Shown: positions 497-57,612, counted from the stretch's first letter. The stretch is DNA of 64,000 nucleotides from Planctomycetes bacterium ADurb.Bin069 (GCA_002070955.1 MWEK01000012.1:35514-99513), one strand, 5' to 3'. Numbers and translations: made by a program. The notes: generated by a model from the sequence alone, not told the origin.

Positions 497-2398
497 ATGA
501 GGATCGGATCGCTTCCGGCGCCGCGGCGGATTGCCGCCTGCGTCGCGACCCTGTGCTTGTTCGCCGCCGTCGCCTGCGCCGCGGGCGACAATATCGCGCC
601 GGAAGGTTACACGGCCCTTTTCAACGGCGCGGATCTTGCGGGCTGGAAGGGGCTTGTGGCCGATCCGCCCGCGCGGGCGGCGATGACGGCGGAGCGCCTC
701 GCCGAGGAGCAGCGGAAAGCCGACGAGCGCATGCGCGCCCACTGGCGCGTCGAGGATGGCGCGCTGGTTTTCGACGGCAAGGGCGACAGCCTCTGCACGG
801 CGCGCGACTACGCCGATTTCGACCTGTACGTCGACTGGAAGATCGAGGCGAAGGGGGACAGCGGAATTTACCTGCGCGGCTCCCCGCAGGTTCAGATCTG
901 GGACAACCCGGTGGGATCGGGCGGCCTCTACAACAACGAGAAGCATCCTTCCGGGCCGCTCTTCGTGGCCGATCGGCCCGTCGGGCAGTGGAATACGTTC
1001 AGGATCATCATGTCGGGCGAGCGCGTGACGGTCTACCTGAACGGGATTCTCGTGGTCGATGACACGCCCATGGAGAATTACTGGGAGCGCGGCAAGCCCA
1101 TCTACCCCTCGGGGCAGATCGAACTCCAGAACCACGGCAGCAAGCTGTACTTCAAGAACATCTACCTGCGCGAGCTTCCCCCCGCGCCGGCGCGGGCGGC
1201 CGCCGCGCCGATCGTGAAACGCGGGTGCCGCGTGGCCGTCGCCGGCGACTCCATCACCGAGCAGCGGCTCTACTCCCGCTTCATCGAGGATTACCTCCTC
1301 ATGTGTTGCGCGGACTTGGATCTGATGTGCATGCAGTTCGGGTGGAGCGGGGAGCGCGCGCCCGGGTTCCAAGCGCGTTTCGCCGACGACTGCCTCGGCT
1401 TCAAGCCCAATGTCGTGACGACCTGCTACGGCATGAACGATGGTTTGTACCGCCCCTACGAACCCGGGATCGGCGCGGCGTACGAGCAAGCCATGCGGGC
1501 CATCGCGCGGGCGGCGGCCGCCGCGGGCGTCGGCATGGTCGTGGGGTCGCCGGGCGCCGTCGATCTCTTCACCTTCAGGCGGCCCGACTTGCCGCCGCCC
1601 GTCTACAACGACAATCTGGCGCGCCTCCGGGACATCGCGCGGACCATCGCCCGGGAATCGGGGCAGCCCTTCGCCAACGTGCACGACCACATGATGCTCG
1701 CGCAGCTTCGGGCCAAGCCCGTTCTCGGCGAGGCCTACGATGTGTGCGGCGGCGATGGCTTCCATCCCCAGCCCAACGGCCACTTGGTCATGGCCTATGC
1801 CTTCCTGAAAGCGTTGGGCATGGACGGCGCCATCGGCTCGATCACGGTGGACATGCAGGGCGGCGCCGCGGCGCAGGGCGGCCACACGGTTTTGAGCGCC
1901 GAGAAGGGCGCCGTCGAAATTCGGAGCGTCAACTACCCGTTCTGCTTCTTCGGCGATGAAAAGTCGCCGGCGGCGACGCGGAGCATCCTGCCGTTCCTCC
2001 CCTTCAACGCGGACTTGAACCGCTTGACCCTCGTCGTCCGGAACCTGACGGGCGCGAGCGCCCGGGTCACGTGGGGCGCGGCCTCGAAGGTCTTCCCGCG
2101 CGCGCGCCTGGAAGAAGGCATCAACCTCGCCGCGGAGTTTCTCGACAACCCCTTCTGCGAGGCCTTCCGCAAAGTCGATGCCCTGGTGGCCAAGAAGCAG
2201 GAGTTCGAGACCGTAATGATCAAGGAGGCCGTGACGAAGTTCAGGTGGATCCGCGCGGCGCTGGGCGATGACGCCGAGGGGGCGCGCGCCATCGCGACGC
2301 TCGTGGACAAGCTCTTCGCGCGGCAGCGCGCCCTGCACGAGGAGGTGCGCGCCGCGATCGCGCCCGTCACGCACAGGCTTGTTGTCGGCGCGCCGTAG
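497..2398 (+). CDS. Secreted fusion protein: DUF1080 (3-keto-disaccharide hydrolase-like/LamG fold) N-terminal domain plus SGNH/GDSL hydrolase domain
   Basis: Signal peptide MRIGSLPAPRRIAACVATLCLFAAVACAAG. The motif FNGADLAGWKG...WRVEDGALV...IYLRGSPQVQIWDN is typical of DUF1080. VAVAGDSITEQ is a GDS(L)-like block-I motif followed by SGNH-like blocks. Confidence 0.7.
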   Translation: MRIGSLPAPRRIAACVATLCLFAAVACAAGDNIAPEGYTALFNGADLAGWKGLVADPPARAAMTAERLAEEQRKADERMRAHWRVEDGALVFDGKGDSLCTARDYADFDLYVDWKIEAKGDSGIYLRGSPQVQIWDNPVGSGGLYNNEKHPSGPLFVADRPVGQWNTFRIIMSGERVTVYLNGILVVDDTPMENYWERGKPIYPSGQIELQNHGSKLYFKNIYLRELPPAPARAAAAPIVKRGCRVAVAGDSITEQRLYSRFIEDYLLMCCADLDLMCMQFGWSGERAPGFQARFADDCLGFKPNVVTTCYGMNDGLYRPYEPGIGAAYEQAMRAIARAAAAAGVGMVVGSPGAVDLFTFRRPDLPPPVYNDNLARLRDIARTIARESGQPFANVHDHMMLAQLRAKPVLGEAYDVCGGDGFHPQPNGHLVMAYAFLKALGMDGAIGSITVDMQGGAAAQGGHTVLSAEKGAVEIRSVNYPFCFFGDEKSPAATRSILPFLPFNADLNRLTLVVRNLTGASARVTWGAASKVFPRARLEEGINLAAEFLDNPFCEAFRKVDALVAKKQEFETVMIKEAVTKFRWIRAALGDDAEGARAIATLVDKLFARQRALHEEVRAAIAPVTHRLVVGAP

Positions 2399-2477
2399 CC
2401 TCGAAAGCGCGCTGAATCCGCCGCTCCCGGAGCCTTTGGAGCCTGTTTTTCCCCTGCGAGAGGAAAGGAGACCGTCC

Positions 2478-7004
<4,527 letters not shown>

Positions 7005-7012
7005 TCAGCGGT

Positions 7013-7453
7013 TCAACGGGAGCCGTGGCCGGCCGGAGCGTGGAGTCCGGCGGCGGGCTCGGGCTCGCCGAGCAGCTTCCTGACCTCGACACGGATCTGC
7101 TCGGGGCGAACGGGCTTGTCGAGCACCTTGTCGGCCTTGATCCACGACCGCGCCTCGGGCGACCGGGCGCCGAAGGAAACGCCCGTCGTGGCCGTCACCG
7201 CCGTGAGCATGATCACCGGCGTCTCGGGATAGAGCTTCTTCAGGTGGTGGCAGAGGACGAAACCGGAGTCCTTCTCCTCCATCATGAGGTCGAGGATCGC
7301 CAGGTCGGGCCGCACCGTGAGGAGGGTCTCCTCGGCCTCGACTTGGCCGCCGGCGCTGACGATGTCGTAGCCCCGCCCCTGCAGGGCGAGAGTGAGCTGG
7401 TCGACGATGTCCGGATCGTCGTCCACAATCAGGATCTTCTTTTTTGCGTTCAT
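7013..7453 (-). CDS. Stand-alone response regulator receiver (CheY-like, no output domain)
   Basis: MNAKKKILIVDDDPDIV...LAILDLMM...PVIMLTA...K shows receiver-domain Asp and Lys motifs. The gene sits between hydA and the nfn-like gene on the same strand. Confidence 0.85.
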   Translation of the reverse strand: MNAKKKILIVDDDPDIVDQLTLALQGRGYDIVSAGGQVEAEETLLTVRPDLAILDLMMEEKDSGFVLCHHLKKLYPETPVIMLTAVTATTGVSFGARSPEARSWIKADKVLDKPVRPEQIRVEVRKLLGEPEPAAGLHAPAGHGSR

Positions 7454-7505: not shown

Positions 7506-9227
7506 TCATAGCAACACATCGCGCTGGGCGTAATGCGTGTGCAGCAAGCGGTGGCTCGTCTCGCTGAGCGGCTTGCCGAGAAACTCCTCGTAGAGCCGGA
7601 GGACCCACTTGTTGCGGTGGCTCACCCGGAGCTGCTCCTCCCGGTCGATCTTGTACAGCGCCTGCATGCGGGACTTGACCGCCTCCAGGTCGGCCTTGAG
7701 CGGCTGGCCGCCGCCGTTGATGCACCCGCCGGGACAGGTCATGACCTCGATGAAGTGCAGGTCTTTCCGGCCCGCCTTGATCTGATCGAGGAGCTTGCGC
7801 GCCTGCCCGAGGCCGCTCACGACGGCGGCGCCCAACTCCAGCCCGTCGATGTTGAGGCGCACCTCCTTGCAGCCGTGCATGCCGCGGATCGGCTGGATCT
7901 TGAGATCGGGGTACTCCTTGCCCGTGATCAGGAAGTAGGCCGAGCGCACCGCCGCCTCCATGACGCCGCCGCTGGCGCCGAAGATCTTGCCCGCGCTGGA
8001 GCGCTCCCCGAAGGGCGTGTCGGCTCCCTCGGGCTCCATGGCCGCCAGGTCGATGCCGAACATGCGCAGGAGTTGGCCGAGCTCGCGGGTGGTCAGGACG
8101 TAGTCGACGTCGGGGATGTGGCCGGGGGCCATCTCGGGCCGCGAGCACTCGAATTTCTTGGCCGTGCAGGGCATGATGGAAACGCTGACGATCTTGGCCG
8201 GATCGACGGCCTCGCGCTGGGCGAAGAAGCTCTTGATGACCGCGCCCATCATCTGCTGCGGGCTCTTACAGGTGGAGATGTTGGGGATGAACTCGGGGTA
8301 GAACTCCTCGACGAACTTGATCCAGCCCGGCGAGCAGCTCGTCAACATGGGCAGCACGCCGCCCGTCTTGATGCGGTGGACGAGCTCGGAGCCCTCCTCC
8401 ATGATGGTCAGGTCCGCCGCGAAGGAGGTGTCGAAGACGCGGTCGAAGCCCACGCGCCTCAAGGCGGCGACCATTTTGCCGTCCAGATCGGTGCCGGGCT
8501 TGACGCCGAACTCCTCGGCGAGGCTCACCGACACGGCGGGGGCGTGCTGGGCGACGACCAGCTTGTCGGGGTCCGACAGGGCCGCGACGACGTCGGCCAG
8601 CGAACTCGTTTCGCTGAGGGCGCCCGTCGGGCAGACGAGGACGCATTGGCCGCAGTTGACGCAGCTTGAGAGGTTGAGCCCCGTGTCGAAGGCGGTGCCG
8701 ATGAAGGCGCGCGAGCCGCGGTTGACGAAGTCGATGGCGGAGATGCCCTGGACCTCCTCGCAGACGCGCACGCAGCGCCCGCAGAGGATGCATTTGTCCG
8801 GGTCGCGCAGAATCGAGGGGCTGGAGACGTCCAGCTCCCTGGTCGTCTTCTTCCCGCGGTACAGGCGCTGGCGGATTCCCATCTCCATGGACAGAGTCTG
8901 GAGATCGCACTTGCCGTTGCGCGCGCAGTACAGGCAGTCATCGGGGTGGTTGCTCAAGAGCAATTCCACGTTGGTCCGGCGCGCCTCGAGCACCTTGGGC
9001 GAACGGGTCTTGATCTTCATGCCGGGGGCGACGGGAAAGGAGCAGGCCGGCGTCAACGTCGGGGAGCCCTCGACCTCCACCACGCAGAGGCGGCAGGCGC
9101 CGCTGGGCGGCAGCCCCTCCATGTGGCAGAGCGTGGGCACCTGGATGCCCTCGCGCTTGAGCGCCGTCAGAATCGTCTCGCCCTCGTTGGCCTGGATCGT
9201 ACGACCGTCAGCTTCGAACGTGATCAT
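7506..9227 (-). CDS. hydA: [FeFe]-hydrogenase catalytic subunit HydA (multimeric/bifurcating type: N-terminal 2Fe-2S, 4Fe-4S ferredoxin domains and H-cluster domain)
   Basis: H-cluster motifs TSCSPGWIKFVE, MPCTAKKFE and MTCPGGCINGGGQP. N-terminal CxxC plant-ferredoxin-like fold and CxxCxxCxxxCP 4Fe-4S motifs. ATG at 9227. Confidence 0.9.
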   Translation of the reverse strand: MITFEADGRTIQANEGETILTALKREGIQVPTLCHMEGLPPSGACRLCVVEVEGSPTLTPACSFPVAPGMKIKTRSPKVLEARRTNVELLLSNHPDDCLYCARNGKCDLQTLSMEMGIRQRLYRGKKTTRELDVSSPSILRDPDKCILCGRCVRVCEEVQGISAIDFVNRGSRAFIGTAFDTGLNLSSCVNCGQCVLVCPTGALSETSSLADVVAALSDPDKLVVAQHAPAVSVSLAEEFGVKPGTDLDGKMVAALRRVGFDRVFDTSFAADLTIMEEGSELVHRIKTGGVLPMLTSCSPGWIKFVEEFYPEFIPNISTCKSPQQMMGAVIKSFFAQREAVDPAKIVSVSIMPCTAKKFECSRPEMAPGHIPDVDYVLTTRELGQLLRMFGIDLAAMEPEGADTPFGERSSAGKIFGASGGVMEAAVRSAYFLITGKEYPDLKIQPIRGMHGCKEVRLNIDGLELGAAVVSGLGQARKLLDQIKAGRKDLHFIEVMTCPGGCINGGGQPLKADLEAVKSRMQALYKIDREEQLRVSHRNKWVLRLYEEFLGKPLSETSHRLLHTHYAQRDVLL

Positions 9228-9256: not shown

Positions 9257-12200
9257 TCACTCCGGTTGCGTGAAATCGAGATCGCACCGCAGGCACCGGC
9301 GCGCCTCGCACACGGCGGCCTCCTCGCTCACGGCCAGCTCGACCTCGGCGAAGCACTTCGCGCGTTTGGCCACGGGCAGCTCCGGCGCGCGCACGCGCCC
9401 CGCGGGCTCGGCATCCTCGTCCGGCAGTTGGACCGGCTCGATGTACACCGTGGGCAGCGTCACCTTCGGCAGGGTCCTCATGAGCTTGCCCTTGAGGAAC
9501 CGGTCGATCATGAGGGCCGCGTTCTTGCCCGCCGCGATGGCCGCGACGACGGTGCTCGGGCCGGTGACCATGTCGCCGCCGGCGAACACGCCCGGCCGGT
9601 CCGTGGCGTAGGACTCGGGGTTGACCGCGACGGTGTTCCACTTCGTCTTTCTGAGGCCGTCGAGCCCCTCGGTTTCGGCCTCCTCGCTGATGGCCGCAAT
9701 GAGGGTGTCGAGCTCCACCTCGAACTCGGAGCCCGGCACCGGCACGGGCTTGGCGCGGCCGGAGGCATCGCGCTCGCCGAGGCGGTTGCGGATGAGCCGC
9801 AGGCCGGTCAGGGCGCCGTTCTTGGAGAGCACCGCCACCGGCGCCACCAATTCCTCGATTTTGATGCCTTCCTTGAGGGCCCCCTCGATTTCCTCGGCGT
9901 AGGCCGGCATCTCCTGGCGCGTGCGGCGGTAGAAGACCGTGACGCTCGTAACGCCCTTCTCCCTGAAGGCCACGCGGGCGGCATCGATGGCGGAGTTGCC
10001 GCCGCCGACAATGCCGACCCGCCCCTTGGCGGTCTCCTTGCCGTGGAGGTTGTAGTCCTTGAGGAAGGTCACGCCGGGCAGGACGCCCTTGACATCCTCG
10101 CCGGGCACTCCGAGCTTCTTGCTCCGGTGCGCGCCGAGGGCCAGGTACACCGCCTTGTAGCCCTCCTTGAACAGGCCGTCGACCGTCACGTCGCGGCCCA
10201 GCGCCGCGCCGTACTTGATCTCGACGTTCTGGTTGAGAAGGGCCTCGATCTCCTTGTTGAGCGTTTGGCGGGGCAGGCGGTAGGCGGGAATGGCCGCGAC
10301 CAGCATCCCCCCCGCCTTGGCCTCGCGCTCGAAGACCGTGACCTTGTTTCCCAGGAGCGACAGATAGTGGGCGGCCGCGAGGCCCGAGGGGCCGGCGCCG
10401 ACCACCGCGACCTTGGGCGCGTTCTCGGCGGCCGGAATGGCGACCGGCGCCCCGACGGAAGGATCGACGCGGTCGACGACGAAACGCTTCAGCGTGCGAA
10501 TCGCGATGGGCTCGCCGCCGGTTTGACCCGCGCGGCAGGTGCGCTCGCAGGGGTGGTGGCAGACGCGGGCGCAGGCCGACGGGAAGGGGTTCGCGGCCCG
10601 GATGGCGCGGTAGGCGTCCTGGTACTCGCCGCGGGAAATATGGGCGACGTAACGCCAGACCTCGGTGCCCACCGGGCAGCCGTTCTGGCACGGCGCGCCG
10701 ACCAGCTCCTTGCAAGCGCCGGCCGGGCAGCTCCGGTCGAAGATATGCGCCTCGTACTCGTCGCGGAACCACTTCAGCGTGCTGAGCACCGGGTTGGGCG
10801 CGGTCTGTCCCAGGCCGCAGAGGCTCGTCGTCTTGATCGTCTCGCCGAGCTGCTGCAGGTACATGATGCCCTGGACGCGCAGGAGGGCGTCGATGTCCTC
10901 CTCCCGCTTACGGGGGCGGCACACGGCTTGGAGGATTTCCAGCATGCGCTTCGTGCCCTCGCGGCACGGGATGCACTTGCCGCAGCTCTCGCTCTGGATG
11001 AACTCCATGAAGAACTTGGCGAAGTCGACCATGCAGGTGCCCTCGTCGACGACGACCATGCCGCCCGAACCCATGATCGTGCCGAACTCCTTGAGGGCCT
11101 CGTAGTCCGTCGGGAGGTCCAGATGCGCTTCGGGGACGCAGCCGCCCGAGGGGCCGCCGATCTGAACGGCCTTGCACTTGCGGTTGTTGGGGATCCCGCC
11201 GCCCGCCTCGAAGACGACGGTGCGCAGCGTCGTGCCCATGGGCACCTCGACCAGGCCGGTGCGCCTGACCATGCCCGAGAGCGCGAACACCTTCGTGCCC
11301 TTGCTGCCCTTGGTTCCCAGGGCCGAGTACCACTCGGCGCCGTGGTGCAGGATCAGCGGGAGGTTCGCCAGGGTCTCGACGTTGTTGATGACGGTGGGCT
11401 TGCCGAAGAGGCCCTTGACCGCCGGGAAGGGCGGGCGGGGCCGAGGCATGCCGCGGCGCCCCTCGATGGAATGGATCAGCGCGGTTTCCTCGCCGCAGAC
11501 GAAGGCGCCGGCGCCCATCTTGAGCACGATGTCCAGATCGTTGCCGGTGTCGAAGATGTTCCGGCCCAGGAGGCCGCAGGCGCGGGCCTGGGCGATGGCG
11601 TCGGTCAAGCGCTTGATCGCGAGGGGATACTCGGCGCGGATGTAAATGTACGCCTTGGTGGCGCCGAAGGCGTAGGCGGCGATGATCATGCCCTCCAGGA
11701 GGCGATGGGGATCGCTCTCGCCGACGGCCCGGTCCATGAAGGCGCCGGGGTCGCCCTCGTCCGCGTTGCAGATGAGGTATTTTTGATCACCGACCGCCTG
11801 GCGCGCGAACTTCCACTTCCTCCCCGTGGGGAAGCCGCCGCCGCCGCGGCCGCGCAGCCCGCTGGCCTCGACGCAGTTGCACACGTCCTCCGGCGTCATT
11901 GTCTTGAGGGCCTTGGTCGCGGCCGAGTAGCCGCCCCAGGCGATGTACTCATCGATGCTGCTCGGATCGATGATGCCGCTGGCCGCCAAGACGACGCGGT
12001 ACTGGGGCCGCAGGAACGAGTGGGCCTCGAGGGCCGGGACGCCGTCCCAAGCTTTGGCGCCGACGTTCCGGAACTGTCCGATGACGCCGTTGCCCGCGGG
12101 AATCACGCCTTTGCCGAGGACCGCGGCCAGGAGATCGGGAACCTTCTCGGCGGTGACTCCGCCGAAGCTCACGCGCGTCCGGCCGGGCAGGTGGATATCG

Positions 12201-12532
12201 ACGATGGGTTCCTCGGAGCACAGGCCGATGCAGCCGGTCTCGAGGACCTGCGCGTCGCTTTTGTGCGCCGCCACCCATTCCTTGATCGCCGCGAGGGTCT
12301 TGCCCGCGCCGGCGCCCAGGCCGCAAGTGCCCGCGCCCACGAAGACGACGGGCGTCGCGAGCGTTTCGCGGCGCAGCGCGGCGAGCAGTTCCGCGATCTT
12401 CCCGGGGTCTCCGGTGCGCGCGGCCGCGAAAGAGCCCGCCTTGAGCCAGCCCAGGAGATCCGGCGACGGCGCCGGCGGCTCGGCCCAGCATTTACCCGGA
12501 GACACCGGACGAACGAAATCACCTAGGCGCAT
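9257..12532 (-). CDS. hydB: HydB/NuoF-like flavoprotein subunit (NuoE-like Trx-like 2Fe-2S N-terminus, FMN/NADH site, 4Fe-4S clusters) fused to a C-terminal GltD-like (glutamate synthase small chain/NfnB-like) FAD/NAD(P)H domain
   Basis: ATG at 12532 with GAAAAGGAGG 7 nt upstream. NuoF-like motifs are GLRGRGGGGFPTGRKW and ESCGKCIPCREGT. The residues beyond about 590 (CQNGCPVG...[14 protein letters not shown]...VFAGGDMVTGPSTV) are GltD-like. Confidence 0.85.
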   Translation of the reverse strand: MRLGDFVRPVSPGKCWAEPPAPSPDLLGWLKAGSFAAARTGDPGKIAELLAALRRETLATPVVFVGAGTCGLGAGAGKTLAAIKEWVAAHKSDAQVLETGCIGLCSEEPIVDIHLPGRTRVSFGGVTAEKVPDLLAAVLGKGVIPAGNGVIGQFRNVGAKAWDGVPALEAHSFLRPQYRVVLAASGIIDPSSIDEYIAWGGYSAATKALKTMTPEDVCNCVEASGLRGRGGGGFPTGRKWKFARQAVGDQKYLICNADEGDPGAFMDRAVGESDPHRLLEGMIIAAYAFGATKAYIYIRAEYPLAIKRLTDAIAQARACGLLGRNIFDTGNDLDIVLKMGAGAFVCGEETALIHSIEGRRGMPRPRPPFPAVKGLFGKPTVINNVETLANLPLILHHGAEWYSALGTKGSKGTKVFALSGMVRRTGLVEVPMGTTLRTVVFEAGGGIPNNRKCKAVQIGGPSGGCVPEAHLDLPTDYEALKEFGTIMGSGGMVVVDEGTCMVDFAKFFMEFIQSESCGKCIPCREGTKRMLEILQAVCRPRKREEDIDALLRVQGIMYLQQLGETIKTTSLCGLGQTAPNPVLSTLKWFRDEYEAHIFDRSCPAGACKELVGAPCQNGCPVGTEVWRYVAHISRGEYQDAYRAIRAANPFPSACARVCHHPCERTCRAGQTGGEPIAIRTLKRFVVDRVDPSVGAPVAIPAAENAPKVAVVGAGPSGLAAAHYLSLLGNKVTVFEREAKAGGMLVAAIPAYRLPRQTLNKEIEALLNQNVEIKYGAALGRDVTVDGLFKEGYKAVYLALGAHRSKKLGVPGEDVKGVLPGVTFLKDYNLHGKETAKGRVGIVGGGNSAIDAARVAFREKGVTSVTVFYRRTRQEMPAYAEEIEGALKEGIKIEELVAPVAVLSKNGALTGLRLIRNRLGERDASGRAKPVPVPGSEFEVELDTLIAAISEEAETEGLDGLRKTKWNTVAVNPESYATDRPGVFAGGDMVTGPSTVVAAIAAGKNAALMIDRFLKGKLMRTLPKVTLPTVYIEPVQLPDEDAEPAGRVRAPELPVAKRAKCFAEVELAVSEEAAVCEARRCLRCDLDFTQPE

Positions 12533-13001
12533 TGACGGCCTCCTTTTCACGGCAGCTCTGAATGATCTGCGCCAGCTTGCGCGGCGACACTTTGGCGTAG
12601 AATTCCCCGTTGACGTTGACGACGGGCGCCAAACCGCAGGCGCCCATGCAGGCGACGACCTCCAGGCTGAACATCCGGTCGCGGGAGGTCTGGCCGGGGC
12701 TGAGCTTGAGCTGCTTCATGACGGTCTGCAGCACCTTGTCCGAGCCCTTGACGTGGCAGGCCGTGCCGCGACACACCATGAAGTGGTACTTGCCCTTGGG
12801 CTGGAAGCGGAACTGGTTGTAGAAGGTCGCCACGCCGTAGATCTTGCTGGCTGGGAGCTTGAGGTGCTTGCTGATTTGGATGACCGCCTCCCGCGACAGG
12901 TATCCCTCGGCTTCCTGCACCTCCTGCAGGATCGGGATAAGCGCGTCGCGCGAGGCGCCCTGATGCTGCGTCAGGATCCTTTCAACGGTTTGGGCGCTCA
13001 T
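12519..13001 (-). CDS. hydC: HydC/NuoE-like thioredoxin-fold [2Fe-2S] subunit of multimeric [FeFe]-hydrogenase
   Basis: The translation ...MVCRGTACHVKGSDKVL...VACMGACGLAPVVNVNG matches the NuoE/HoxE 2Fe-2S family. The ATG at 13001 overlaps the rex stop codon (ATGA). Confidence 0.85.
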   Translation of the reverse strand: MSAQTVERILTQHQGASRDALIPILQEVQEAEGYLSREAVIQISKHLKLPASKIYGVATFYNQFRFQPKGKYHFMVCRGTACHVKGSDKVLQTVMKQLKLSPGQTSRDRMFSLEVVACMGACGLAPVVNVNGEFYAKVSPRKLAQIIQSCREKEAVNAPR

Positions 13002-13666
13002 GCGTGTTTCCTTTCCATCTGCTGTCCCCGGCGCGCGAAGAACGCGACCTTCTCGAGGGACATGGCCAGATCAATATCCTCGACGAAGACGTGGTCTGGA
13101 ACGCGCAGCGTCACCGGGGCGAAATTGAGAATGCCGCGCACGCCGGCATCGACGAGCAGGTCGGCCGTCGCCTGGGCGGCGGCCGCGGGGACCGTCAGCA
13201 TGGCGACCTCGATGCGGGCGGCGGCGGCCACCGTGCGGAGATCGGCGACGGGATAGCAGCGGCAGCCGAAGGTGACGCAGTTGGTTTTCGCAGAATCGAT
13301 GTCGAAGGTCGCGACGACGGCCAGGCGGGACCGGCGGCCGGCGAAGAAGCTCAGAATGGCGCGCCCGAGGTTGCCCAGGCCGACGAGCGCCACGTTCTGG
13401 GTGCCGGGGCGGTAGAGGAATTCCTCGATTCCGGCGAGGAGCTCCCGCCGGTCGTAGCCGCGGTTGGGGCTGCCCGCGCAGCCGACGAGCATGAGATCGC
13501 GGCGCACCTGCGCCGAGGAGACGCCGCACATGGCGCCGAGCTCATAAGAGTATATGAACCGTTTTTGGTGTTCGTGGGCGCCCGAGAGGCGTTTTCGATA
13601 GAGAATCAGACGGCTGACCGTCCGCTCCGAGATTGTGCGCTCGGATCCGCCCTGTTGCTTCTTCAT
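12998..13666 (-). CDS. rex: Redox-sensing transcriptional repressor Rex (NADH/NAD+ sensor)
   Basis: N-terminal winged helix (RLILYRKRL...) and Rossmann fold (VALVGLGNLGRAIL) typical of Rex. First gene of the hydCBA operon. Confidence 0.85.
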   Translation of the reverse strand: MKKQQGGSERTISERTVSRLILYRKRLSGAHEHQKRFIYSYELGAMCGVSSAQVRRDLMLVGCAGSPNRGYDRRELLAGIEEFLYRPGTQNVALVGLGNLGRAILSFFAGRRSRLAVVATFDIDSAKTNCVTFGCRCYPVADLRTVAAAARIEVAMLTVPAAAAQATADLLVDAGVRGILNFAPVTLRVPDHVFVEDIDLAMSLEKVAFFARRGQQMERKHA

Positions 13667-13709: not shown

Positions 13710-13808
13710 ATTATGGCGCATCCCTCGGCGGTTGTCAAGGTGGTCGTAAGGCGGCTCCTTGGCATGATCGTTGCGGGGAACTTGACGCCGGGTTGTCTTG
13801 ACGTTAAG

Positions 13809-13826
13809 CTGTGAATGGTTTCACAA
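13809..13826. promoter_or_regulatory. Putative Rex operator (cTGTGAA-tggt-TTCACAA), near-perfect inverted repeat
   Basis: 17/18 match to TTGTGAAnnnnTTCACAA. It is 44 nt upstream of the plus-strand rex paralog start and within the shared divergent promoter region. Confidence 0.6.
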
Positions 13827-13869
13827 TGTGATTGGCTTTGCAAGGCTCCCGGGAGCTTCATGGTCACCG

Positions 13870-14514
13870 ATGCCGCCTTCTGAACGGACAATCGGCCGCC
13901 TGAGCCTGTACCGCCGCCTGCTCAAACAGGCCGCCGCCGCGGGACACGAGCACGTGTACTCCCACGAGCTCGGCGCGCGGGCCGGAGCGACGGCTTGCCA
14001 GGTCAGGCGCGACATCATGGGGCTTGGCTGCGCTGGAAGCCCGAGCCGGGGGTACAAGGTGAAGACGCTGCTCGACCGGATCGAATTTTACCTCGATGCG
14101 CCCGTGGTCGAGCGCGTCGCGCTGGTCGGCGTCGGGAATCTGGGCCGGGCGATTCTGTCGTTTTTTCAGCGCCGCCGGCCGAAGCTCGAGATCACGGCGG
14201 CGTTCGACAGCGACCCGTGGAAGACAAACCGCGTCGTCCAGGGCGTGCGCTGCCACGCCATGGCCGAATTGGAGCCGGTGGTGAGGGAGCAGGGCATCAG
14301 GCTCGCCGTTCTGACCGTGCCCGCCGCGGCGGCGCAGGAGGCGGCCGACGCCCTGGTGGCGGCGGGGATCACGGGGATCCTGAGCTTCGCGCCGGCGCCC
14401 CTGCGCGTGCCGCTCGGCGTTTTCGTCGAGGACATGGATTTGGCGATGTCCCTGGAGAAAGTGGCGTACTTTGCCCGGCGGCACGTTCGGGCGCCGCGGC
14501 GGGGCGGGAAGTGA
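13870..14514 (+). CDS. rex: Second Rex-family redox-sensing repressor (paralog), divergent from the first
   Basis: MPPSERTIGRLSLYRRLL...VALVGVGNLGRAILSF... is about 55-60% identical by eye to the rex at 12998..13666. ATG at 13870. Confidence 0.8.
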   Translation: MPPSERTIGRLSLYRRLLKQAAAAGHEHVYSHELGARAGATACQVRRDIMGLGCAGSPSRGYKVKTLLDRIEFYLDAPVVERVALVGVGNLGRAILSFFQRRRPKLEITAAFDSDPWKTNRVVQGVRCHAMAELEPVVREQGIRLAVLTVPAAAAQEAADALVAAGITGILSFAPAPLRVPLGVFVEDMDLAMSLEKVAYFARRHVRAPRRGGK

Positions 14515-14524
14515 GGGCCCTCCG

Positions 14525-16531
14525 ATGAAATGCGCGGGCGACATCCAGCTCGTACGGACGATCAAGGAGCGCTGCCGCATCTGCTTCACCTGCGTGCGGG
14601 AATGCCCCGCCAAGGCCATCAGGATCGTCGAAGGCCAGGCCGAGGTGGTGCCCGAGCGCTGCATCGGGTGCGGCAACTGCATGCGGGTGTGCAGCCAGAA
14701 CGCCAAGCAGGTGCTCGACGGGAAGCCGGACACGGCCGCGCTGCTAGCCTCGGGCGCGCCCGTCGCGGCCCTGGTCGCCCCGAGTTTTCCGGCGGAGTTC
14801 GTCGAGTGCGGGTGGCGCGAGTTCGTGGGCATGTTGCGCGCGCTGGGCTTCGCCTTCGTCAACGAGGTCGCTTTCGGCGCCGATATCGTCGCCGAACGCT
14901 ACCGGCGCCTGCTCGCCGAGCATGACGGGAAGCGCTACATTGCCACGACCTGTCCGGCGATCATCTCCTTCGTGGAGCAGTACCACCCCGAGCTGGTCAA
15001 GTTCCTGGCGCCGGTGGTCTCGCCCATGGTGGCGGAGGCGCGGGTGCTGCGCAGCATCCACGGCGACGGGGTTAAGCAGGTCTTCATCGGCCCCTGCATC
15101 GCCAAGAAGGGCGAGGCGGCCAGCGAGAACGTTCCGGACGAGGTCGATGCCGCCCTGACCTTTCAGGAGCTCCGGCAGATGTTCGCCGAGGCCGGCATCA
15201 CGCCGGAAAACGTGCGGCCGAGCGATTTCGACCCGCCGCGCGCCGGTCTCGGGGCGCTCTTCCCCTTGAGCCGCGGCTTGCTCCAGACCGCGGGGCTCGA
15301 CGAGGACCTGCTCACGGGCCACGTGGTCGTGACGGGCGGACGGCAGAACTTCGTCCAGGCCCTGCGCGAGTTCGAGAAGGGCGACCTCAACACGCGGCTC
15401 CTGGAGATTCTGGCCTGCGAAGGCTGCGTGATGGGGCCCGGCGTCACGAACGATACGCCGCTTCTGACCCGGCGGGCCAACGTCAGCCGCTACGTGCGCG
15501 AATGCCACGCGACGCTGGACCTGGCGCGCTTCCGGGCGGACCTGGACCGATGCGAGAAAATCGATTTCACGCGGGGGTTCAAGGTCTACGATCAGCGCAT
15601 GCCGGTGCCGCCCGAGGAGGAGATCAGGAATGTGCTGGAGCGCATGGGCAAGGAGGAGCCCGCCGACGAGCTGAACTGCGGCGCCTGCGGCTACGACACC
15701 TGCCGCGAGCACGCCGTGGCGATCATCGAGGGGCTCGCCGAGCACGAGATGTGCCTGCCGCATTCCATCGAGCGGCTGCACAAGACGGTGAAAGACCTGG
15801 CCGCTTCGAATCGACAGCTCGCCTCGACCCAGGAGGCGCTGCTCAACTCCGAGCGCCTCGCGAGCATGGGGCAGCTCGCCGCCGGCATCGCCCACGAGGT
15901 CAACAACCCCCTGGGCGTGGTGCTGATGTTCGCGCATCTGCTCCGCGAGCAGCACGCCAAGAACCCGGCGCTTGCCCAAGACCTGGCCCTGATCGTCGAG
16001 CAGACCGATCGCTGCAAGAAGATCGTGGCGGGCCTGCTCAATTTCGCGCGCCAGACCAAGGTTCTCAGGCAGCCCTTCGATGTGCGCGAGCTCGTCAACC
16101 GCACGCTTCAGACCATGCCGCCCCCCGCGGGCGTCAAGGTGCGCGTCGAGCATGGAATCGAAGACCCGGTCGCCGAGATCGACCGCGATCAGATCGCGCA
16201 GGTCCTCGTCAATCTGATCACGAACGGGTACCAGGCCATGGCGGGCGGGGGCGTGTTGAGCGTGCGCACCCGCGGCGATGCCGACACGGCGGTCATCGAG
16301 GTGGCCGACACCGGCGTGGGCATCCCCAAGGAGAACCTGACGAAGATCTTCGAGCCGTTCTTCACGACCAAGCAGATCGGCACGGGCACGGGCCTGGGGC
16401 TCGCGGTGAGCTACGGGATCACCAAGATGCATAACGGCGGCATCGCCGTGGAATCCAACATCGACCCCGCCCGGGGGCCGACCGGAAGCACGTTCACCGT
16501 CACGCTGCCGCGCCGGGGGGCCGACGCTTAG
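14525..16531 (+). CDS. Putative sensory [FeFe]-hydrogenase (HydS-like, group C type) fused to a histidine kinase (HisKA + HATPase_c)
   Basis: N-terminal 2x 4Fe-4S ([23 protein letters not shown]). H-cluster-like motifs [22 protein letters not shown] and [12 protein letters not shown] Cys-rich linker CGACGYDTC is followed by the H-box (IAHEVNNPL) and N/G1/G2 boxes (LITNGYQA...DTGVGI...[11 protein letters not shown]). Confidence 0.85.
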
Positions 16532-16548: not shown

Positions 16549-17697
16549 GTGGGAGCAACGACACTGAAAATCCTGGTGGTCGATGACGAGCCTGGGATGC
16601 AGATCGGCGTCGAGCGCGCCCTCAGGGACTACGCCGTGCATGTCGCCGAGGTGAACGAGGATGTGCGCTTCGAGGTCGAAACCGCCGGGAGCGGCGAGGA
16701 TGCGCTGGCGCGCATCGAGAACGTCCCGGCGCCGCCGCACCTCCTGCTGCTGGATCACATGCTGCCCGGCATGACCGGCCTGGATGTGCTCGACCGCCTG
16801 GCGGGCAGGGATCTGGAGCTCCTCACCATCATGATCACGGCGTATGCGTCGCTGGAGACCGCCGTGACGGCGACGAAGCGCGGGGCCTACGATTTTCTGG
16901 CCAAGCCCTTCACGCCGGCCGAGCTCAAGAACGTGATCCAGAAGGCGGCGGCCCGGCTGCTCCTGGCGCGCCAGGCGCGCGCGCTGGCCCGCGAGCGGCA
17001 CCAGGTGCGCTTCCAGTTCATATCGGTGCTGGCGCACGAGCTCAAGGCGCCCCTGGCCGCCGTCCAGGGCTACCTGGCCATCATGCGCGACCGCGCCGCC
17101 GGCGATACGATCGACGATTACGACGAGGCGATCGGGCGCTGCCTGGCCCGGGTGGAGGGGATGCGCAAGCTGATCCTCGATCTGCTCGATCTCACGAAGA
17201 TCGAATCCGGCCAGCGCGCGCGGGAGATCGCCCCGCTGGATCTCTGCGACGCCGTGCGCCACGCGCTGGACACCTACCGGCCCGAGGCGGATGCGCGGCG
17301 GATCACGCTGGAGTTCGCGCCCGCGGGGCCGGTGCCGATGGAAGCCGACCGGAGCGAGATCGAGGTGATTCTCAACAACCTGCTCTCCAACGCCGTCAAG
17401 TACAACCGCGACGGCGGGAGCGTGACCGTGGAGTGCGGGGCCGAGGACGGCACCGTGACGATCGGCGTCGCCGACACGGGCATCGGCATGGGGCCTGAGG
17501 ATGTCAAGAAGCTGTTCGGCGATTTCGTGCGCATCAAGAACGAAAAGACCCGCAAGATCTCCGGCAGCGGCCTGGGCCTGGCGATTCTCAAGAAACTGGC
17601 GCTCTTGAACGGGGGCGACGTGAAGGTGGAGAGCACTCCTGATGTCGGGACGCGCTTCACCGTGACGCTCAACCAGCGTCAGACAAGCAAGGAATAG
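16549..17697 (+). CDS. Hybrid sensor: N-terminal receiver domain fused to histidine kinase (REC-HisKA-HATPase_c)
   Basis: GTG start at 16549 with GGAAGGAGAG upstream. REC motif (LKILVVDDEP...LLLLDHMLPG), H-box (LAHELKAPL) and ATPase boxes (LLSNAVKYN...DTGIGM...GSGLGLAI). Confidence 0.85.
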   Translation: MGATTLKILVVDDEPGMQIGVERALRDYAVHVAEVNEDVRFEVETAGSGEDALARIENVPAPPHLLLLDHMLPGMTGLDVLDRLAGRDLELLTIMITAYASLETAVTATKRGAYDFLAKPFTPAELKNVIQKAAARLLLARQARALARERHQVRFQFISVLAHELKAPLAAVQGYLAIMRDRAAGDTIDDYDEAIGRCLARVEGMRKLILDLLDLTKIESGQRAREIAPLDLCDAVRHALDTYRPEADARRITLEFAPAGPVPMEADRSEIEVILNNLLSNAVKYNRDGGSVTVECGAEDGTVTIGVADTGIGMGPEDVKKLFGDFVRIKNEKTRKISGSGLGLAILKKLALLNGGDVKVESTPDVGTRFTVTLNQRQTSKE

Positions 17698-17737: not shown

Positions 17738-19162
17738 ATGTGTGCGCTGCCGGCCATGCGCGTGAGCGCGGGCTGCATCGATTTCATCAACGAGGCGCGT
17801 TTCAACGCGCTGCTGGCGCCGAGCCGCCCCGACCCGGGCCGCGTGCGCGAAATCATCGACAAGAGTCTCGCGAAGGAGGCCCTGTCGCTGGAGGAGACGG
17901 CGGTCCTGCTGGGGGCGGAGGATCCCGGCCAGATCGAGGCGATCTTCCAGGCCGCGCGGACTCTCAAGGAGCGGGTCTACGGGAACCGCATCGTGCTCTT
18001 CGCGCCGCTTTACATCGGCAACCATTGCGTCAACGACTGCGCCTATTGCGGCTTCAAGCGCTCGAACAAGGAAGCCGTTCGGCGGACGCTGCGCGGCGGG
18101 GAGCTCGAGGCCCAGATCCGGGCGCTCCAGCGCGCCGGGCACAAGCGCCTGATTCTGGTCTTCGGCGAGCACCCCGCCTACGATGCGGAGTCCATCGCCG
18201 AGGCCGTGCGCACGGCCTATCGCATCAAGGAAGGCCGCGGCGAGATCCGGCGCGTCAACATCAACGCGGCGCCCCTGGATGTGGAGGGCTTCCGCGCCGT
18301 CAAGGCGGCCGGCATCGGGACGTACCAGATCTTCATGGAAACGTACCACCGCGCCACCTACGCCCGCCTCCACCCGGCCTACACGCGCAAGGGGGACTAC
18401 CTGTACCGCCTGGATGCGTTGAATCGGGCCCTCGAGGCCGGTTGCGACGATGTGGGCATCGGCGCCCTTTTCGGACTCTACGACTGGAAGTTCGAGGTGC
18501 TCGGGCTCGTCGCCCACGCGCTCCATCTCCAGGAGCGCTTCCGCGTGGGGCCCCACACGATCAGCTTCCCGCGCATCAAACCCGCCTCGGGCGTGTGCCT
18601 CGACGATTGCCACGACGTGAGCGACGAGGAGTTCGCCCGCGTCGTGGCGATTCTGCGCCTGGCGGTGCCCTATACGGGCCTCATCCTGACGGCGCGCGAG
18701 CCCGCGGCGCTCAGGCGCCGCCTCATGGCGTTCGGCGTGTCGCAGATCGACGCGGGCACGCGCCTTGAGATCGGCGGCTACACCGAAGCCGGCGATGCGC
18801 AGGTCATGGAGCGCGAGCAGTTCAGCCTGGGGGACGTGCGCTCGTTGGACGAGGTCATCTTCGAGCTGGTCGAGGACGGCTACGTGCCGAGCTTCTGCAC
18901 GGCGTGCTACCGGCTCGGCCGCACGGGGGAGCACTTCATGGAGTTCGCGATTCCCGGCTTCATCAAGCGCTTCTGCACCCCGAACGCGCTGACGACCTTC
19001 AAGGAATACCTGATCGACTACGCCTCGCCGCGCACGCGCGCGGCCGGCGAGCGCCGCATCGCGGCGGAGCTGGCCCAGTTGCCCGACGATCCGCAGAAAG
19101 CGGCGCTCATGCGCCGGCTGGAGGCGATCGAAACCGGCACGGCGCGGGATCTGTACTGCTGA
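17738..19162 (+). CDS. hydG: [FeFe]-hydrogenase maturase HydG (radical SAM tyrosine lyase)
   Basis: Radical SAM CNDCAYC motif. C-terminal auxiliary-cluster motif FCTACYRLGRTGEHFME is characteristic of HydG. ThiH-like overall. Confidence 0.9.
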   Translation: MCALPAMRVSAGCIDFINEARFNALLAPSRPDPGRVREIIDKSLAKEALSLEETAVLLGAEDPGQIEAIFQAARTLKERVYGNRIVLFAPLYIGNHCVNDCAYCGFKRSNKEAVRRTLRGGELEAQIRALQRAGHKRLILVFGEHPAYDAESIAEAVRTAYRIKEGRGEIRRVNINAAPLDVEGFRAVKAAGIGTYQIFMETYHRATYARLHPAYTRKGDYLYRLDALNRALEAGCDDVGIGALFGLYDWKFEVLGLVAHALHLQERFRVGPHTISFPRIKPASGVCLDDCHDVSDEEFARVVAILRLAVPYTGLILTAREPAALRRRLMAFGVSQIDAGTRLEIGGYTEAGDAQVMEREQFSLGDVRSLDEVIFELVEDGYVPSFCTACYRLGRTGEHFMEFAIPGFIKRFCTPNALTTFKEYLIDYASPRTRAAGERRIAAELAQLPDDPQKAALMRRLEAIETGTARDLYC

Positions 19163-19202: not shown

Positions 19203-21197
19203 CTATTCGATGGCGCGGATCGCGGCGTCCGCCGACCATTTGGCGCGGGGTATCTGCGCGATTTTTCGGAGGGCGGGCAGCGCCGGCGCGGCGGGCTTGC
19301 CGATGGCGCCCAGCGCCGCGGCGACCGAACGCAGCACATGGACCTGCTGGCCCTCCGCCGAGGCGGCGTCGATCAACGCCGGGACCGCCGGCGCGGCCTC
19401 CCGGCCGATCGCCGCGAGGGCGTTGGCCGCCATCATCCGAACGCCGGCGTCGGAGTCCTGGAGCGCGGCCGCCAGCATGTCCAGCGCCGCGACGCTCTCC
19501 TGCCCCCTGTCGCGCAGCGCCAAGGCCGCCAAGCCGCGGGTGATCGGATCGGGATCCGACAGGGCGCGGCCGATGTCGGCAATGCTCCCCGCGGGCCTGC
19601 GCGGTTCGGTCACCGCCGCGGCGGCCGCCCACGCCTCCGGGCCCGTCTTGGCGAGAATGATGCAGTCGACGCCGAGGTTGTAGCCCCCGGACGCCTCGCG
19701 CTTGCCGAGGCACACGAACGTCAGGGTGTGCCGGCCCTTCGCGAGGCTGGGCCAGCCGACCTGGTAGGCGAGGCCGACGTAGGTCTCGGGAGCGTATCCG
19801 TCGAACTGCGTCCGCTCGATCACGTCGGCGCCCGGCTCGTGCTCGAGCTGCGCCGCGCCGGGGGCCTTGCCGTCGAGAAGCACGGTGTAGATCCCGTAGT
19901 CGCCCGCCTGGGCGACTTCGGTGTACACCTCGTAGACGCCGTCCTCGGGCGCGTCGAAGGGGATTTCGAGCTTGGCGCCCGGGCCCTCGGCGGCGAAGAA
20001 GATCACATCCTTGGACCAGAAAAGCTCGGGGATGAGGGACGCCTCGCCGCCCGCGGCCTTGACCTCGGCGAGGGATTGCTCCACCTCGATTTGCGCGGCG
20101 TTGCCGTGGGGCAGCCGCGCGGAGCCGTAGGGCACGGGGGGAAGATCCCGCGCGATGCCTTCTTGGTACCAGAAGGCGACGCTCGCGATGCAATCGGTGC
20201 GCTCGCCGAAGCACGATTTGACTGAGCCGTCGGCGTTGTAAGTCCAGCCCCGGTGCTCCATCTCCGCCTTGAGCGCGGACGTGAAGGGAATGGGATCGGT
20301 GAGGTGCCAGCGGTAGGCCGTCATTCGCGCGCCGAGCCCGGTGCCCTCGGCCACCGTGACGCCGTACAGGGGTCCGTCGTTGACATGCAGGCCCCAGGCG
20401 TCGTTGAAGTAGTCCTCGCTGCCCGTGCCCACGATCTCGGGGCGCCGCCCGTCCACCCAGAAGAAGTCATCGCCTTCCCCGAACCAGCCGGCCTCGGCCT
20501 GGACGACGGACATCACGGTGCCCACGTAATGCCCCCGGCCTTTGACGTTCAGGAATTCGTACCTGGAGCCATCCGCCGGTGCGGGCAGCGCCTGGCGGTA
20601 CCACGCGTGGAAGTAGCGCGTGTCCCGCGGGAGCGACGGCACTTTCTGCCAGTCGACGTGGTAGTAGAGCATGGTCACGCGGCGGCGGCCCTCGTTGGTG
20701 ATGGTGATCTTGCACGACTTGTGGAACGGCATCGGCCAGTAGCAGTTGCGGGCGCGGCCCGCGGAGCTGTTCCGAACCATGAGGGACTCGACCTCGGCCT
20801 CGACGCCGTTGCCGACGGCGAAGAAATCGCCCACCGGCGCGTCGACGCTGGGGGTGGGGCTCCCGTCGTAGTACACGCGCAGGCGCAGGAGCCGCGGCCA
20901 GCCGTACTCGTTGTCCGCGATGGTCAGCCAGATGTGGGTGACGACGCCGGGGCCTGCCAGGTCGGCGAGGACCGTCGTCTCGCCGGGGATCGGGCGCGCG
21001 CTGTCGTCGTTCGAGTCCCAGTCGGGATTGTTCGACGAGGCGCGCATCGCCGTGAAGTCCTTCGGCCGGGTCAGGCCGTAAGGATCGGGGTAGGCGGGGG
21101 CCGCGCGGTCGCTGCAGCCGGACGCCGCGGCGATGAAGAGCGCGGCGGGGAACCACGAGAGCAGAAGCTGTGTTTTCATGGGTTCAGTATACCTCAT
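19203..21197 (-). CDS. Secreted lipoprotein: DUF2961 (GH172-like) domain fused to C-terminal HEAT/PBS-lyase-like repeats
   Basis: Possible lipobox (LFIAAASGC). DUF2961 blocks GPGVVTHIWLT...GTGSEDYFNDAWG. The C-terminal GLAALALRDRG...DSDAGVRMMAANALAAIG run is HEAT-like. The exact start (21197 or 21179) is uncertain. Confidence 0.7.
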   Translation of the reverse strand: MRYTEPMKTQLLLSWFPAALFIAAASGCSDRAAPAYPDPYGLTRPKDFTAMRASSNNPDWDSNDDSARPIPGETTVLADLAGPGVVTHIWLTIADNEYGWPRLLRLRVYYDGSPTPSVDAPVGDFFAVGNGVEAEVESLMVRNSSAGRARNCYWPMPFHKSCKITITNEGRRRVTMLYYHVDWQKVPSLPRDTRYFHAWYRQALPAPADGSRYEFLNVKGRGHYVGTVMSVVQAEAGWFGEGDDFFWVDGRRPEIVGTGSEDYFNDAWGLHVNDGPLYGVTVAEGTGLGARMTAYRWHLTDPIPFTSALKAEMEHRGWTYNADGSVKSCFGERTDCIASVAFWYQEGIARDLPPVPYGSARLPHGNAAQIEVEQSLAEVKAAGGEASLIPELFWSKDVIFFAAEGPGAKLEIPFDAPEDGVYEVYTEVAQAGDYGIYTVLLDGKAPGAAQLEHEPGADVIERTQFDGYAPETYVGLAYQVGWPSLAKGRHTLTFVCLGKREASGGYNLGVDCIILAKTGPEAWAAAAAVTEPRRPAGSIADIGRALSDPDPITRGLAALALRDRGQESVAALDMLAAALQDSDAGVRMMAANALAAIGREAAPAVPALIDAASAEGQQVHVLRSVAAALGAIGKPAAPALPALRKIAQIPRAKWSADAAIRAIE

Positions 21198-57433: not shown

Positions 57434-57446
57434 GGGGGGGGGGGGG
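57434..57446. repeat. Homopolymeric G tract (13 nt) in the intergenic region
   Basis: tct-GGGGGGGGGGGGG-caat; a second G6 run lies at about 57519. It is about 165 nt upstream of the small secreted-protein gene. Confidence 0.8.
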
Positions 57447-57612
57447 CAATACAACGTCATCTTCACGCGGCTTGTCGGCCCCGTATCACGTATAGCCGGC
57501 GTAGTCCAGTAGACGTCTTCTGGGGGGTGTTTCGGGTTCGAGACCCACCTTCTTCACAAGAAACTGCTATTCGTGGCTAAGTTTAAGCTCATAGCATCCA
57601 AGAAGAAGGTGG

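Follow-up and report, generated by a model that had tools for sequence, protein, structure and literature searches.

The 64,000 nt window analysed here, from Planctomycetes bacterium ADurb.Bin069 (GCA_002070955.1, MWEK01000012.1:35514-99513), carries on its minus strand at 9257..12532 a hydB::gltD fusion gene (1091 aa plus stop), within what its gene content identifies as a heterotrimeric Bfu-type [FeFe] hydrogenase operon, rex-hydC-hydB::nfnL-hydA, whose HydC and HydA are canonical in their predicted domains. The fusion product, HydB, joins a core of the bifurcating BfuB/HydB type to an NfnL/GltD-like module, and it lacks the canonical ferredoxin-like domain with two [4Fe-4S] clusters, B3 and B4, the module standing in its place. 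Residues of the module point to the permuted, lysine-ligated type known from StnC and NfnA, which would imply a non-bifurcating flavin adenine dinucleotide (FAD), and HydB probably has a second nucleotide site, specific for NADPH. We tentatively read the enzyme as one that would work without ferredoxin. The initial annotation of this gene had placed the fusion in an otherwise classical HydCBA operon and treated the module as an extension of a classical HydB. That description does not hold, as HydB is without the canonical domain and the replacement of B3/B4 by the module had gone unnoticed.

The fusion itself is genuine, and its coordinates had been given correctly. The open reading frame (ORF; 9257-12550, minus strand) has no internal stops and yields 1091 aa when read from the ATG at 12532, and no frameshift was found between the two halves. 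Its product is identical over the full length (100%) to HQJ52953.1 from a Planctomycetota metagenome-assembled genome (MAG), and the fused ORF is the same in independent assemblies. G+C content at third codon positions is 0.92 and comparable to that of the adjacent genes, in a window of ~69% G+C. Homologues of ~1090 aa with 68-78% identity over 99% of the query form at least 120 clusters at the 90% identity level, from Planctomycetota, Acidobacteriota, Lentisphaerae and Longimicrobiales. At least 258 species-representative genomes from about ten phyla encode a relative (one genome per species was scanned). Identical independent assemblies, the full-length clusters and the 258 species genomes together rule out a frameshift, an assembly artefact or a pseudogene; nothing was found in support of such a reading, and we give it practically no weight. 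The architecture had been presented as atypical and, by implication, as new. It is in fact widespread, and a published study has already described it under the name sub-type I BfuB (PMC11406978).

Pfam models place Complex1_51K at residues 221-392 of the fusion protein (E 2e-47), SLBB at 415-464 (27.9 bits, cutoff 27), NADH_4Fe-4S at 503-596 (9e-32), Fer4_20 at 607-689 (2e-21) and Pyr_redox_2 at 707-1002 (2e-24); apart from SLBB, these are the families by which the initial annotation had proposed to check the fusion, and all four matched. NCBIfam gives a NuoF-family match over 190-597 and, over ~565-1085, models named 'NAD(P)-binding protein / NADPH-dependent glutamate synthase small subunit'. 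A sequence search of the PDB splits the protein cleanly, with residues 63-612 matching BfuB subunits and residues 613-1084 matching NfnL-like modules. An AlphaFold2 model of HydB has a mean predicted local distance difference test score (pLDDT) of 77.5, with good folds of the individual domains. When this model was compared to the PDB with Foldseek the halves were found again separately, the N-terminal half matching NfnB/StnB with template modelling scores of 0.77-0.85 and the C-terminal half matching 9bov_A and 5jca_L (root-mean-square deviation, rmsd, 2.9 Å), and no solved chain spanned both.

The two halves meet at a zinc hinge. In solved Bfu enzymes the B2 zinc is held by a His/Cys motif and one further Cys upstream of it (PMC12018979), the ferredoxin-like domain that follows holds the B3 and B4 [4Fe-4S] clusters, and the low-potential path leads from the swinging C1 cluster of BfuC through B3/B4 to ferredoxin (PMC11829005; PMC12018979). 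HydB has the B2 motif HIFDRSCPAGAC at residues 596-607 (10712..10747, minus strand), with H596, C602 and C607, joined by C500, as ligands and the junction directly after it. All four residues are invariant in an alignment of 44 homologues, which is the basis for every statement on invariance made here. In a focused alignment the hinge motif has equal spacing in the BfuBs of Thermoanaerobacter kivui, Acetobacterium woodii, Acetomicrobium mobile and Sporomusa ovata; HydB is collinear with solved BfuBs through '...SLCGLGQTAPNPVLST(L/I)(K/R)xFRDEYEAHIxDxxCPAGxC', and beyond this point similarity is nil. The PDB alignments to BfuB also stop at the hinge, ~60 residues short of the ends of those chains, and the GltD-like module begins seven residues past the last hinge Cys. 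A CxxCxxCxxxCP motif was not found in HydB, and Fer4_20 is its only Fer4-type Pfam match.

By its conserved ligands the enzyme is predicted to possess the flavobicluster of B1, flavin mononucleotide (FMN) and C1 as well as the Bfu-specific His/Cys3 hinge, the features by which Bfu enzymes are defined structurally (PMC12018979; PMC11829005). The Bfu survey of Schut et al. (2022) defines BfuB with a C-terminal 4Fe-4S ferredoxin-type domain (IPR017896) and 'invariant' five clusters (PMC9304861). The NuoF FMN-binding, SLBB and NuoF 4Fe-4S domains of BfuB in that survey are all present in HydB, and BfuC and BfuA with 2Fe-2S and 4Fe-4S domains are encoded in the same cluster; the C-terminal ferredoxin-type domain is the one item lacking. 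With the B3/B4 exit domain replaced by an NADPH/FAD module, the electron path would be non-standard, as had been expected at the outset.

The N-terminal half resembles the B subunits of bifurcating enzymes. Residues 63-612 match Thermococcus sibiricus NfnB (9n5u_B, 2e-191), followed by the BfuBs of A. mobile (7t2r_B), A. woodii (7q4v_B), Caldicellulosiruptor saccharolyticus (9bov_B), S. ovata (8oh5_B), T. kivui (8a6t_B) and Thermotoga maritima (7p5h_B). The NuoF-like core with FMN/NADH site, SLBB and four-helix bundle occupies residues 191-600 (10733..11962, minus strand), and the ligands of the B1 [4Fe-4S] cluster, C517, C520, C523 and C572, are invariant. Losey et al. (2020) separated bifurcating from non-bifurcating beta subunits by Ala/Glu and Met at positions 232 and 234 of T. 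maritima HydB, Phe at 367 and GGPSG in the SLBB region (PMC7311640). Read off the sequence, the bifurcating-type state is present at all three signatures, namely A264/M266 (DPGAFMDR), F344 (GAGAFVCGEE) and GGPSG at 459-463. In the last of these motifs G459, G460, P461 and G463 never vary, and at least 90% of the homologues keep S462. A non-bifurcating HydB of the Syntrophomonas wolfei type was rejected, the signature residues being of the other type, and the N-terminal half is, as far as conserved residues can indicate, a complete bifurcating-type BfuB/HydB core.

Residues 1-190 (11963..12532, minus strand) comprise an N-terminal extension of ~60 aa and a thioredoxin-like domain, for which the best PDB matches, 9n5u_B, 9bov_B and 8oh5_B, begin at residue 63. 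At the B5 site only three Cys are invariant (C70, C101 and C105, in the pattern 'VGxGxCG...GCxGxCxxEP'), a pattern common to Nfn-Bfu B subunits, and cryo-electron microscopy of two Nfn-Bfu enzymes showed Zn instead of [2Fe-2S] at the B5-type site (PMC12018979; PMC11829005). With no more than three conserved Cys and a pattern of the Zn type, B5 is more plausibly a Zn site than a NuoE-like 2Fe-2S cluster, whose presence in HydB is doubtful. The initial annotation had listed this 2Fe-2S motif beside those for FMN/NADH and 4Fe-4S; the latter two stand, while the first is in doubt. The extension (residues 1-60, ~12353-12532, minus strand) contains a near-invariant C15-W16, and Cys15 is a possible fourth ligand of B5. 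Additionally, the four-helix bundle contains a 9-residue insertion (residues ~549-557, ~10862-10888, minus strand). Neither the extension nor the insertion has a counterpart in any solved BfuB.

The module spans residues 613-1085 (9278..10696, minus strand). Its best PDB match is C. saccharolyticus NfnA (9bov_A 102-567, 2e-108, for residues 613-1084), followed by T. sibiricus NfnA (9n5u_A) and S. ovata StnC (8oh5_C), and then by T. maritima NfnB (4ylf_B, 2e-74), Pyrococcus furiosus NfnI-L, GltD and DPD. Residues for two [4Fe-4S] clusters (C615, C619, C654, C658, C662, C666, K682, C1080 and C1083) are all invariant, while C1060 and C1075 are not. Equally invariant are the FAD site, G712-x-G714-x-x-G717 with R752, and the NADPH site, G843-G845/A848 with Y868-R869-R870, so the cluster ligands and GxGxxG residues of the C-terminal half, on which the initial annotation depended, are conserved. 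The YRR after the second Rossmann strand is common to the NADPH-dependent NfnL, StnC and NfnA. Together with the conserved site it predicts a second pyridine-nucleotide site on HydB, probably for NADPH, which had been suggested earlier as a possibility.

Alignment of the module to NfnB (4ylf_B) falls into two pieces, the body corresponding to 46-462 and the extreme C-terminal tail ('...FAEVELAVSEEAAVCEARRCLRCD') to 14-43. This tail, residues 1055-1084, holds the 'RCLRC' segment, which NfnL has at its N-terminus and from which comes the first CxxC of the distal cluster, whose predicted ligands are C615, C619, C1080 and C1083. Because the N-terminal NfnL segment sits at the C-terminus, exactly as in StnC and NfnA, the module is circularly permuted with respect to NfnL and GltD. 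K682 aligns with Lys170 of StnC, an unusual ligand of the FAD-proximal cluster, in place of which 4ylf_B has Glu, and R752 aligns with Arg239 of StnC. The FAD of StnC was found to be non-bifurcating and its proximal cluster Lys-ligated (PMC10482914). Permutation and Lys ligation thus point to a module of the Stn/NfnA type and would imply a FAD that does not bifurcate.

The nearest relatives of the module, by best PDB hits, permutation and the Lys ligand, are the NfnL-like inserts of StnC and NfnA (PMC10482914), and not the group A2 hydrogenases to which the initial annotation had compared it. The HydDB rule for group A2 calls for a GltD-domain protein 'but not NuoF' (PMC5037454). Membership in this 'glutamate-synthase-linked' group was rejected under that rule, as the partner protein here holds NuoF domains. 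Because the rule excludes NuoF, NuoF::GltD fusions are binned as A3.

Phylum membership and synteny were taken from the best 80 loci of the genome scan, with denominators that vary per gene. These loci belong to Planctomycetota (including Phycisphaerae), Acidobacteriota (Holophaga, Geothrix, Mesoterricola), Lentisphaerota/Victivallales, Elusimicrobiota, Myxococcota, 'Deltaproteobacteria', Latescibacterota, Krumholzibacteriota, WOR-3 and Eisenbacteria, with one Spirochaetaceae MAG. The fusion gene is directly preceded by hydC in 75/75 loci and directly followed by hydA in 66 of 68. A single-domain response regulator (RR) comes after hydA in 61 of 65 loci, a HydS-like hydrogenase::histidine kinase (HK) is part of the cassette in 47 of 59, and rex lies upstream in 49 of 70. 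The conserved cassette is Rex-HydC-HydB::GltD-HydA-RR-HydS::HK. In most relatives the regulator and sensor genes are located 3' of hydA on the same strand, whereas the sensor genes of the window are divergent.

An exhaustive HMMER search of 1.84 billion representatives at 50% identity added at least eight full-length NuoF::GltD clusters with 37-49% identity, in contexts that vary between a NuoE-fusion-HydA operon, tandem pairs (one locus) and stand-alone genes. The tandem arrangement is found on a metagenomic contig (L083, 4239-13156), where two NuoE + NuoF::GltD pairs (43% identity to the window protein) are followed by a NuoG/HydA-like gene. Several Holophagae loci of Holophaga, Geothrix and Mesoterricola (L037, L048, L053, L059 and L061, at ~2200-4500) contain a second, divergent hydA (47-48% identity) and a hydC-like gene immediately upstream of the cassette, so that two different multimeric [FeFe] hydrogenases are adjacent in these genomes. 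A rough neighbour-joining tree of NuoF cores, which carries no support values and includes mislabelled truncated fragments, has the fused cores apparently interleaved with canonical BfuBs.

Our favoured reading, which we hold tentatively, is a hydrogenase that would need no ferredoxin and would link H2 to NAD(H) as well as NADP(H), by way of the clusters of the module and a non-bifurcating FAD. It draws on the architecture and junction, the invariant cofactor ligands, the bifurcating-type residues, the position of the module at the place of B3/B4, its Stn type and YRR motif, the best matches of HydA and HydC among bifurcating HydABC and NfnC, and the strict synteny. The two clusters of the module would occupy the place of B3/B4 and accept the low-potential electron that the swinging C1 of HydC delivers; from there electrons would pass to the FAD, which would gather two of them and reduce NADP+. 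The ferredoxin-free reaction would be 2 H2 + NAD+ + NADP+ <-> NADH + NADPH + 2 H+. A more specific version, on balance unlikely, has the flavobicluster bifurcating or confurcating between the two pyridine nucleotides, with NADP(H) replacing ferredoxin, in a three-flavin/metal-site enzyme that exploits the ~90 mV gap found in vivo and is widespread in Planctomycetota, Acidobacteriota, Lentisphaerota, Elusimicrobiota and Myxococcota. Of the two partners, NADP(H) would be the one of low potential, near -370 mV in cells (PMC6288185), and NAD(H) the one of high potential, near -280 mV (PMC9304861). By our own arithmetic, with H2 at -414 mV at 1 bar, confurcation of NADH and NADPH (mean ~-325 mV) would permit H2 evolution up to ~100 Pa, compared to ~3 Pa for NADH alone and ~0.1 bar for NADH plus ferredoxin. 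The value for NADH alone is consistent with the 2-40 Pa at which NADH-only HydAB equilibrates (PMC7311640). Control by Rex and a H2-sensing kinase would fit the role of a redox valve.

Several points weigh against a ferredoxin-independent enzyme. A full-text literature search found no biochemical or structural data on any member of the family, and the specificity for NADPH over NADH is a prediction from motif homology. In the AlphaFold2 model residues 595-614 have a pLDDT below 50 and the predicted template modelling score is 0.54, so the placement of the module relative to the core and HydC is not fixed by the model. If NADP+ received an electron of very low potential, driving force would be lost, unless the potentials of the clusters were retuned. 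Ferredoxin may also still bind at the distal cluster of the module, as in NfnSL, and Greening et al. assumed ferredoxin for a related archaeal HydB (PMC11216029).

The last of these points leads to a scheme in which ferredoxin is still a substrate. It would dock at the clusters of the module that stand in for B3/B4, as it does on NfnL in NfnSL, and the FAD/NADP(H) site would be an extra or alternative point of entry or exit, merging HydABC and Nfn activities and linking H2, NAD, NADP and ferredoxin. The modules of NfnSL do pass electrons to ferredoxin through their [4Fe-4S] pair (PMC10482914), and the bifurcating-type core is kept; on the other hand, the NfnB partner domain is absent from the fusion protein system and the module belongs to the Stn type, whose representative in StnC makes no contact with ferredoxin. 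We consider this scheme rather unlikely. It is less probable again that HydB belongs to a non-bifurcating, NAD(P)H-linked hydrogenase in which the module acts as a second, independent diaphorase and either NADH or NADPH suffices by itself. Loss of B3/B4 is typical of non-bifurcating homologues (PMC9304861; PMC11406978) and the same module is a plain electron-input device in StnC (PMC10482914), yet all three residue signatures are of the bifurcating type, and both the Bfu-specific hinge His and the C-terminal domain of HydC are conserved. Zheng & Huang (2024) postulated that the FAD is a second, NfnSL-like bifurcation centre beside the FMN-FeS centre (PMC11406978), and the module is indeed homologous to the bifurcating NfnL (4ylf_B 2e-74; 5jca_L). 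However, the proximal ligand is an invariant Lys, K682, as in the non-bifurcating StnC, and not the Glu of NfnL (PMC10482914), and a NfnS/PyrK-like high-potential branch does not belong to the conserved cassette, a fused NfnSL being nearby in only 2 of 80 loci. The published proposal, which we regard as quite improbable, is weakened by the Stn type of the module, by its Lys ligand and by the lack of a NfnS partner.

Tools of the HydDB type bin sub-type I enzymes as A3 'NAD + ferredoxin bifurcating' hydrogenases. Because the subfamily is without the ferredoxin-contacting domain and has a predicted NADPH site, its redox partners may be misassigned when the metabolism behind H2 cycling in soils and sediments is reconstructed. 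Were the coupling of NADH and NADPH true, it would represent new bifurcation chemistry within the Bfu family and a direct link from H2 to NADPH of biotechnological interest. The residue-level argument also offers a specific, testable alternative to the proposal of a second bifurcating FAD.

The remaining genes of the operon surround the fusion on the minus strand. The gene hydC (12519..13001), whose 3' end is overlapped by the fusion gene, encodes a NuoE-like BfuC with a predicted C1 [2Fe-2S] cluster (Pfam 2Fe-2S_thioredx 1e-51) and a conserved C-terminal domain; its best PDB matches are NfnC (9n5u_C) and T. kivui HydC (8a6t_C). Downstream, hydA (7506..9227) encodes an H-cluster subunit of the M3 type, with 2Fe-2S, His-ligated 4Fe-4S, 2x4Fe-4S and H domains and an SSU-like tail. 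HydA matches Pfam Fe_hyd_lg_C (1e-95) and NCBIfam FeFe_hydrog_A6 ('NADH-dependent [FeFe] hydrogenase, group A6', 833 bits, cutoff 765), and its best PDB matches are T. kivui HydA1 (8a6t_A, 2e-185, full-length) and A. woodii 7q4v_A. It carries the L2 and L3 motifs. The L1 motif at residues ~294-300 reads TSCSPGW compared to the textbook TSCCPxW, a variant also present in A. woodii HydA1 (7q4v_A) and in 72 of 75 HydAs from related cassettes. The single-domain response regulator after hydA (Pfam Response_reg) is located at 7013..7453 on the minus strand.

The first gene of the operon is rex (12998..13666, minus strand; NCBIfam Rex 187 bits, above cutoff), and a second, divergent rex paralogue, whose start codon is uncertain, lies at 13798..14514 on the plus strand. 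Near the divergent region between the two is a Rex-operator-like palindrome, CTGTGAATGGTTTCACAA (13809..13826, plus strand), with one mismatch to TTGTGAANNNNTTCACAA. It is the sole match in the window; because 31 of 100 shuffles also gave at least one match it is weak evidence by itself. Since the listed ORF of the second rex has the palindrome within its 5' end, that gene probably starts further downstream. On the plus strand follow a histidine kinase joined to a HydS-like sensory [FeFe]-hydrogenase domain (14471..16531; Fe_hyd_lg_C, FeS, HisKA, HATPase_c), a putative H2 sensor resembling HydDB group C1; a hybrid response-regulator/histidine kinase (16549..17697), which most relatives likewise have beside the hydrogenase; and the H-cluster maturase gene hydG (17738..19162; TIGR03955, 479 bits against a cutoff of 312).

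Directly after the operon the minus strand encodes a fused NfnS-NfnL protein of 792 aa (4572-6950) with PyrK-like Fe-S, Fer4_20 and Pyr_redox_2 domains (NCBIfam PRK12778 1050 bits, slightly below the cutoff of 1103). It was considered as a part of the system and rejected, as the 2 of 80 related loci that contain it are both from the closest relatives. The hydrogenase region is flanked by genes for DUF2961 proteins (2268-4577, plus strand, and 19203-21197, minus strand), one with HEAT repeats, and for a 3-keto-disaccharide hydrolase/GDSL lipase fusion (497-2398); no functional link of the hydrogenase to these neighbours is evident. Farther away, at 54000-60000, G+C content falls from ~0.70 to 0.57-0.61 over genes for HEAT/F5_F8-type-C, CarboxypepD_reg and FG-GAP repeat proteins, which are probably surface proteins. 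There were no Rfam matches anywhere in the window.

In the genomic study of Zheng & Huang (2024, mSystems, PMC11406978), 'sub-type I BfuB' was described as having its B3/B4 domain replaced by DPD_II (Fer4_20, two 4Fe-4S) and a C-terminal FAD/NAD(P) domain. It was found in bfuC-bfuB-bfuA clusters of group A3 and was called a possible novel bifurcating mechanism; homologues were reported from Spirochaetota, Pseudomonadota, Planctomycetota, Verrucomicrobiota, Kiritimatiellota and Thermodesulfobacteriota, among them distant ones in Syntrophus gentianae DSM 8423 and Desulfotignum balticum DSM 7044. HydB of the window, with Fer4_20 (607-689) and Pyr_redox_2 (707-1002) directly after the hinge and with HydC and HydA adjacent, matches sub-type I in its architecture. 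The published description is purely genomic, Hydrogenedentota-centred and often includes a BfuD subunit, whereas the window is without BfuD, its cassette has Rex and a HydS::HK sensor, and its residues point to a non-bifurcating, Stn-type FAD. What appears to be new is the placing of the module in the Stn type, permuted and with a Lys ligand, together with the FAD chemistry this would imply, the Zn-type B5 site, and the conservation of the Rex/HydS::HK cassette across about ten phyla.

With the canonical HydABC enzymes (T. kivui 8a6t, A. woodii 7q4v, T. maritima 7p5h) the system shares HydA, HydC and the HydB core through the 'EYEAHIxDxxCPAGxC' hinge, but it differs in having a FAD/NADPH module of ~480 aa instead of the ferredoxin-like C-terminus and three Cys instead of four at B5. 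The GltD/GltA-like domain on a NuoF-like HydB recalls, by description, the archaeal group F hybrid [FeFe]/[NiFe] hydrogenase of Greening et al. (Cell 2024, PMC11216029), in which the glutamate-synthase-like domain of HydB was modelled as the low-potential acceptor site. That hybrid, however, has five genes and a HydA fused to a [NiFe] small subunit. With NfnSL (NfnAB) and GltD the C-terminal half shares its fold (4ylf_B 2e-74; 5jca_L rmsd 2.9 Å; 2vdc_G), whereas those proteins have an unpermuted segment order, a Glu cluster ligand and a requirement for NfnS or GltB as partner; HydB has Lys682, and a NfnS-like gene is not part of the conserved cassette. The Stn/Nfn-Bfu enzymes (S. ovata StnABC 8oh5, C. 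saccharolyticus 9bov, T. sibiricus 9n5u) have the same permuted module with Lys ligand, conserved Arg and YRR, and their B-subunit core and 3-Cys N-terminal domain are the best PDB matches of the N-terminal half. In those enzymes the module is inserted in an H-cluster-free A subunit, as a mid-potential input, and the B subunit keeps B3/B4. In the system described here the A subunit is by its motifs a true hydrogenase, and the module is carried by the B subunit, at what would be the low-potential exit.

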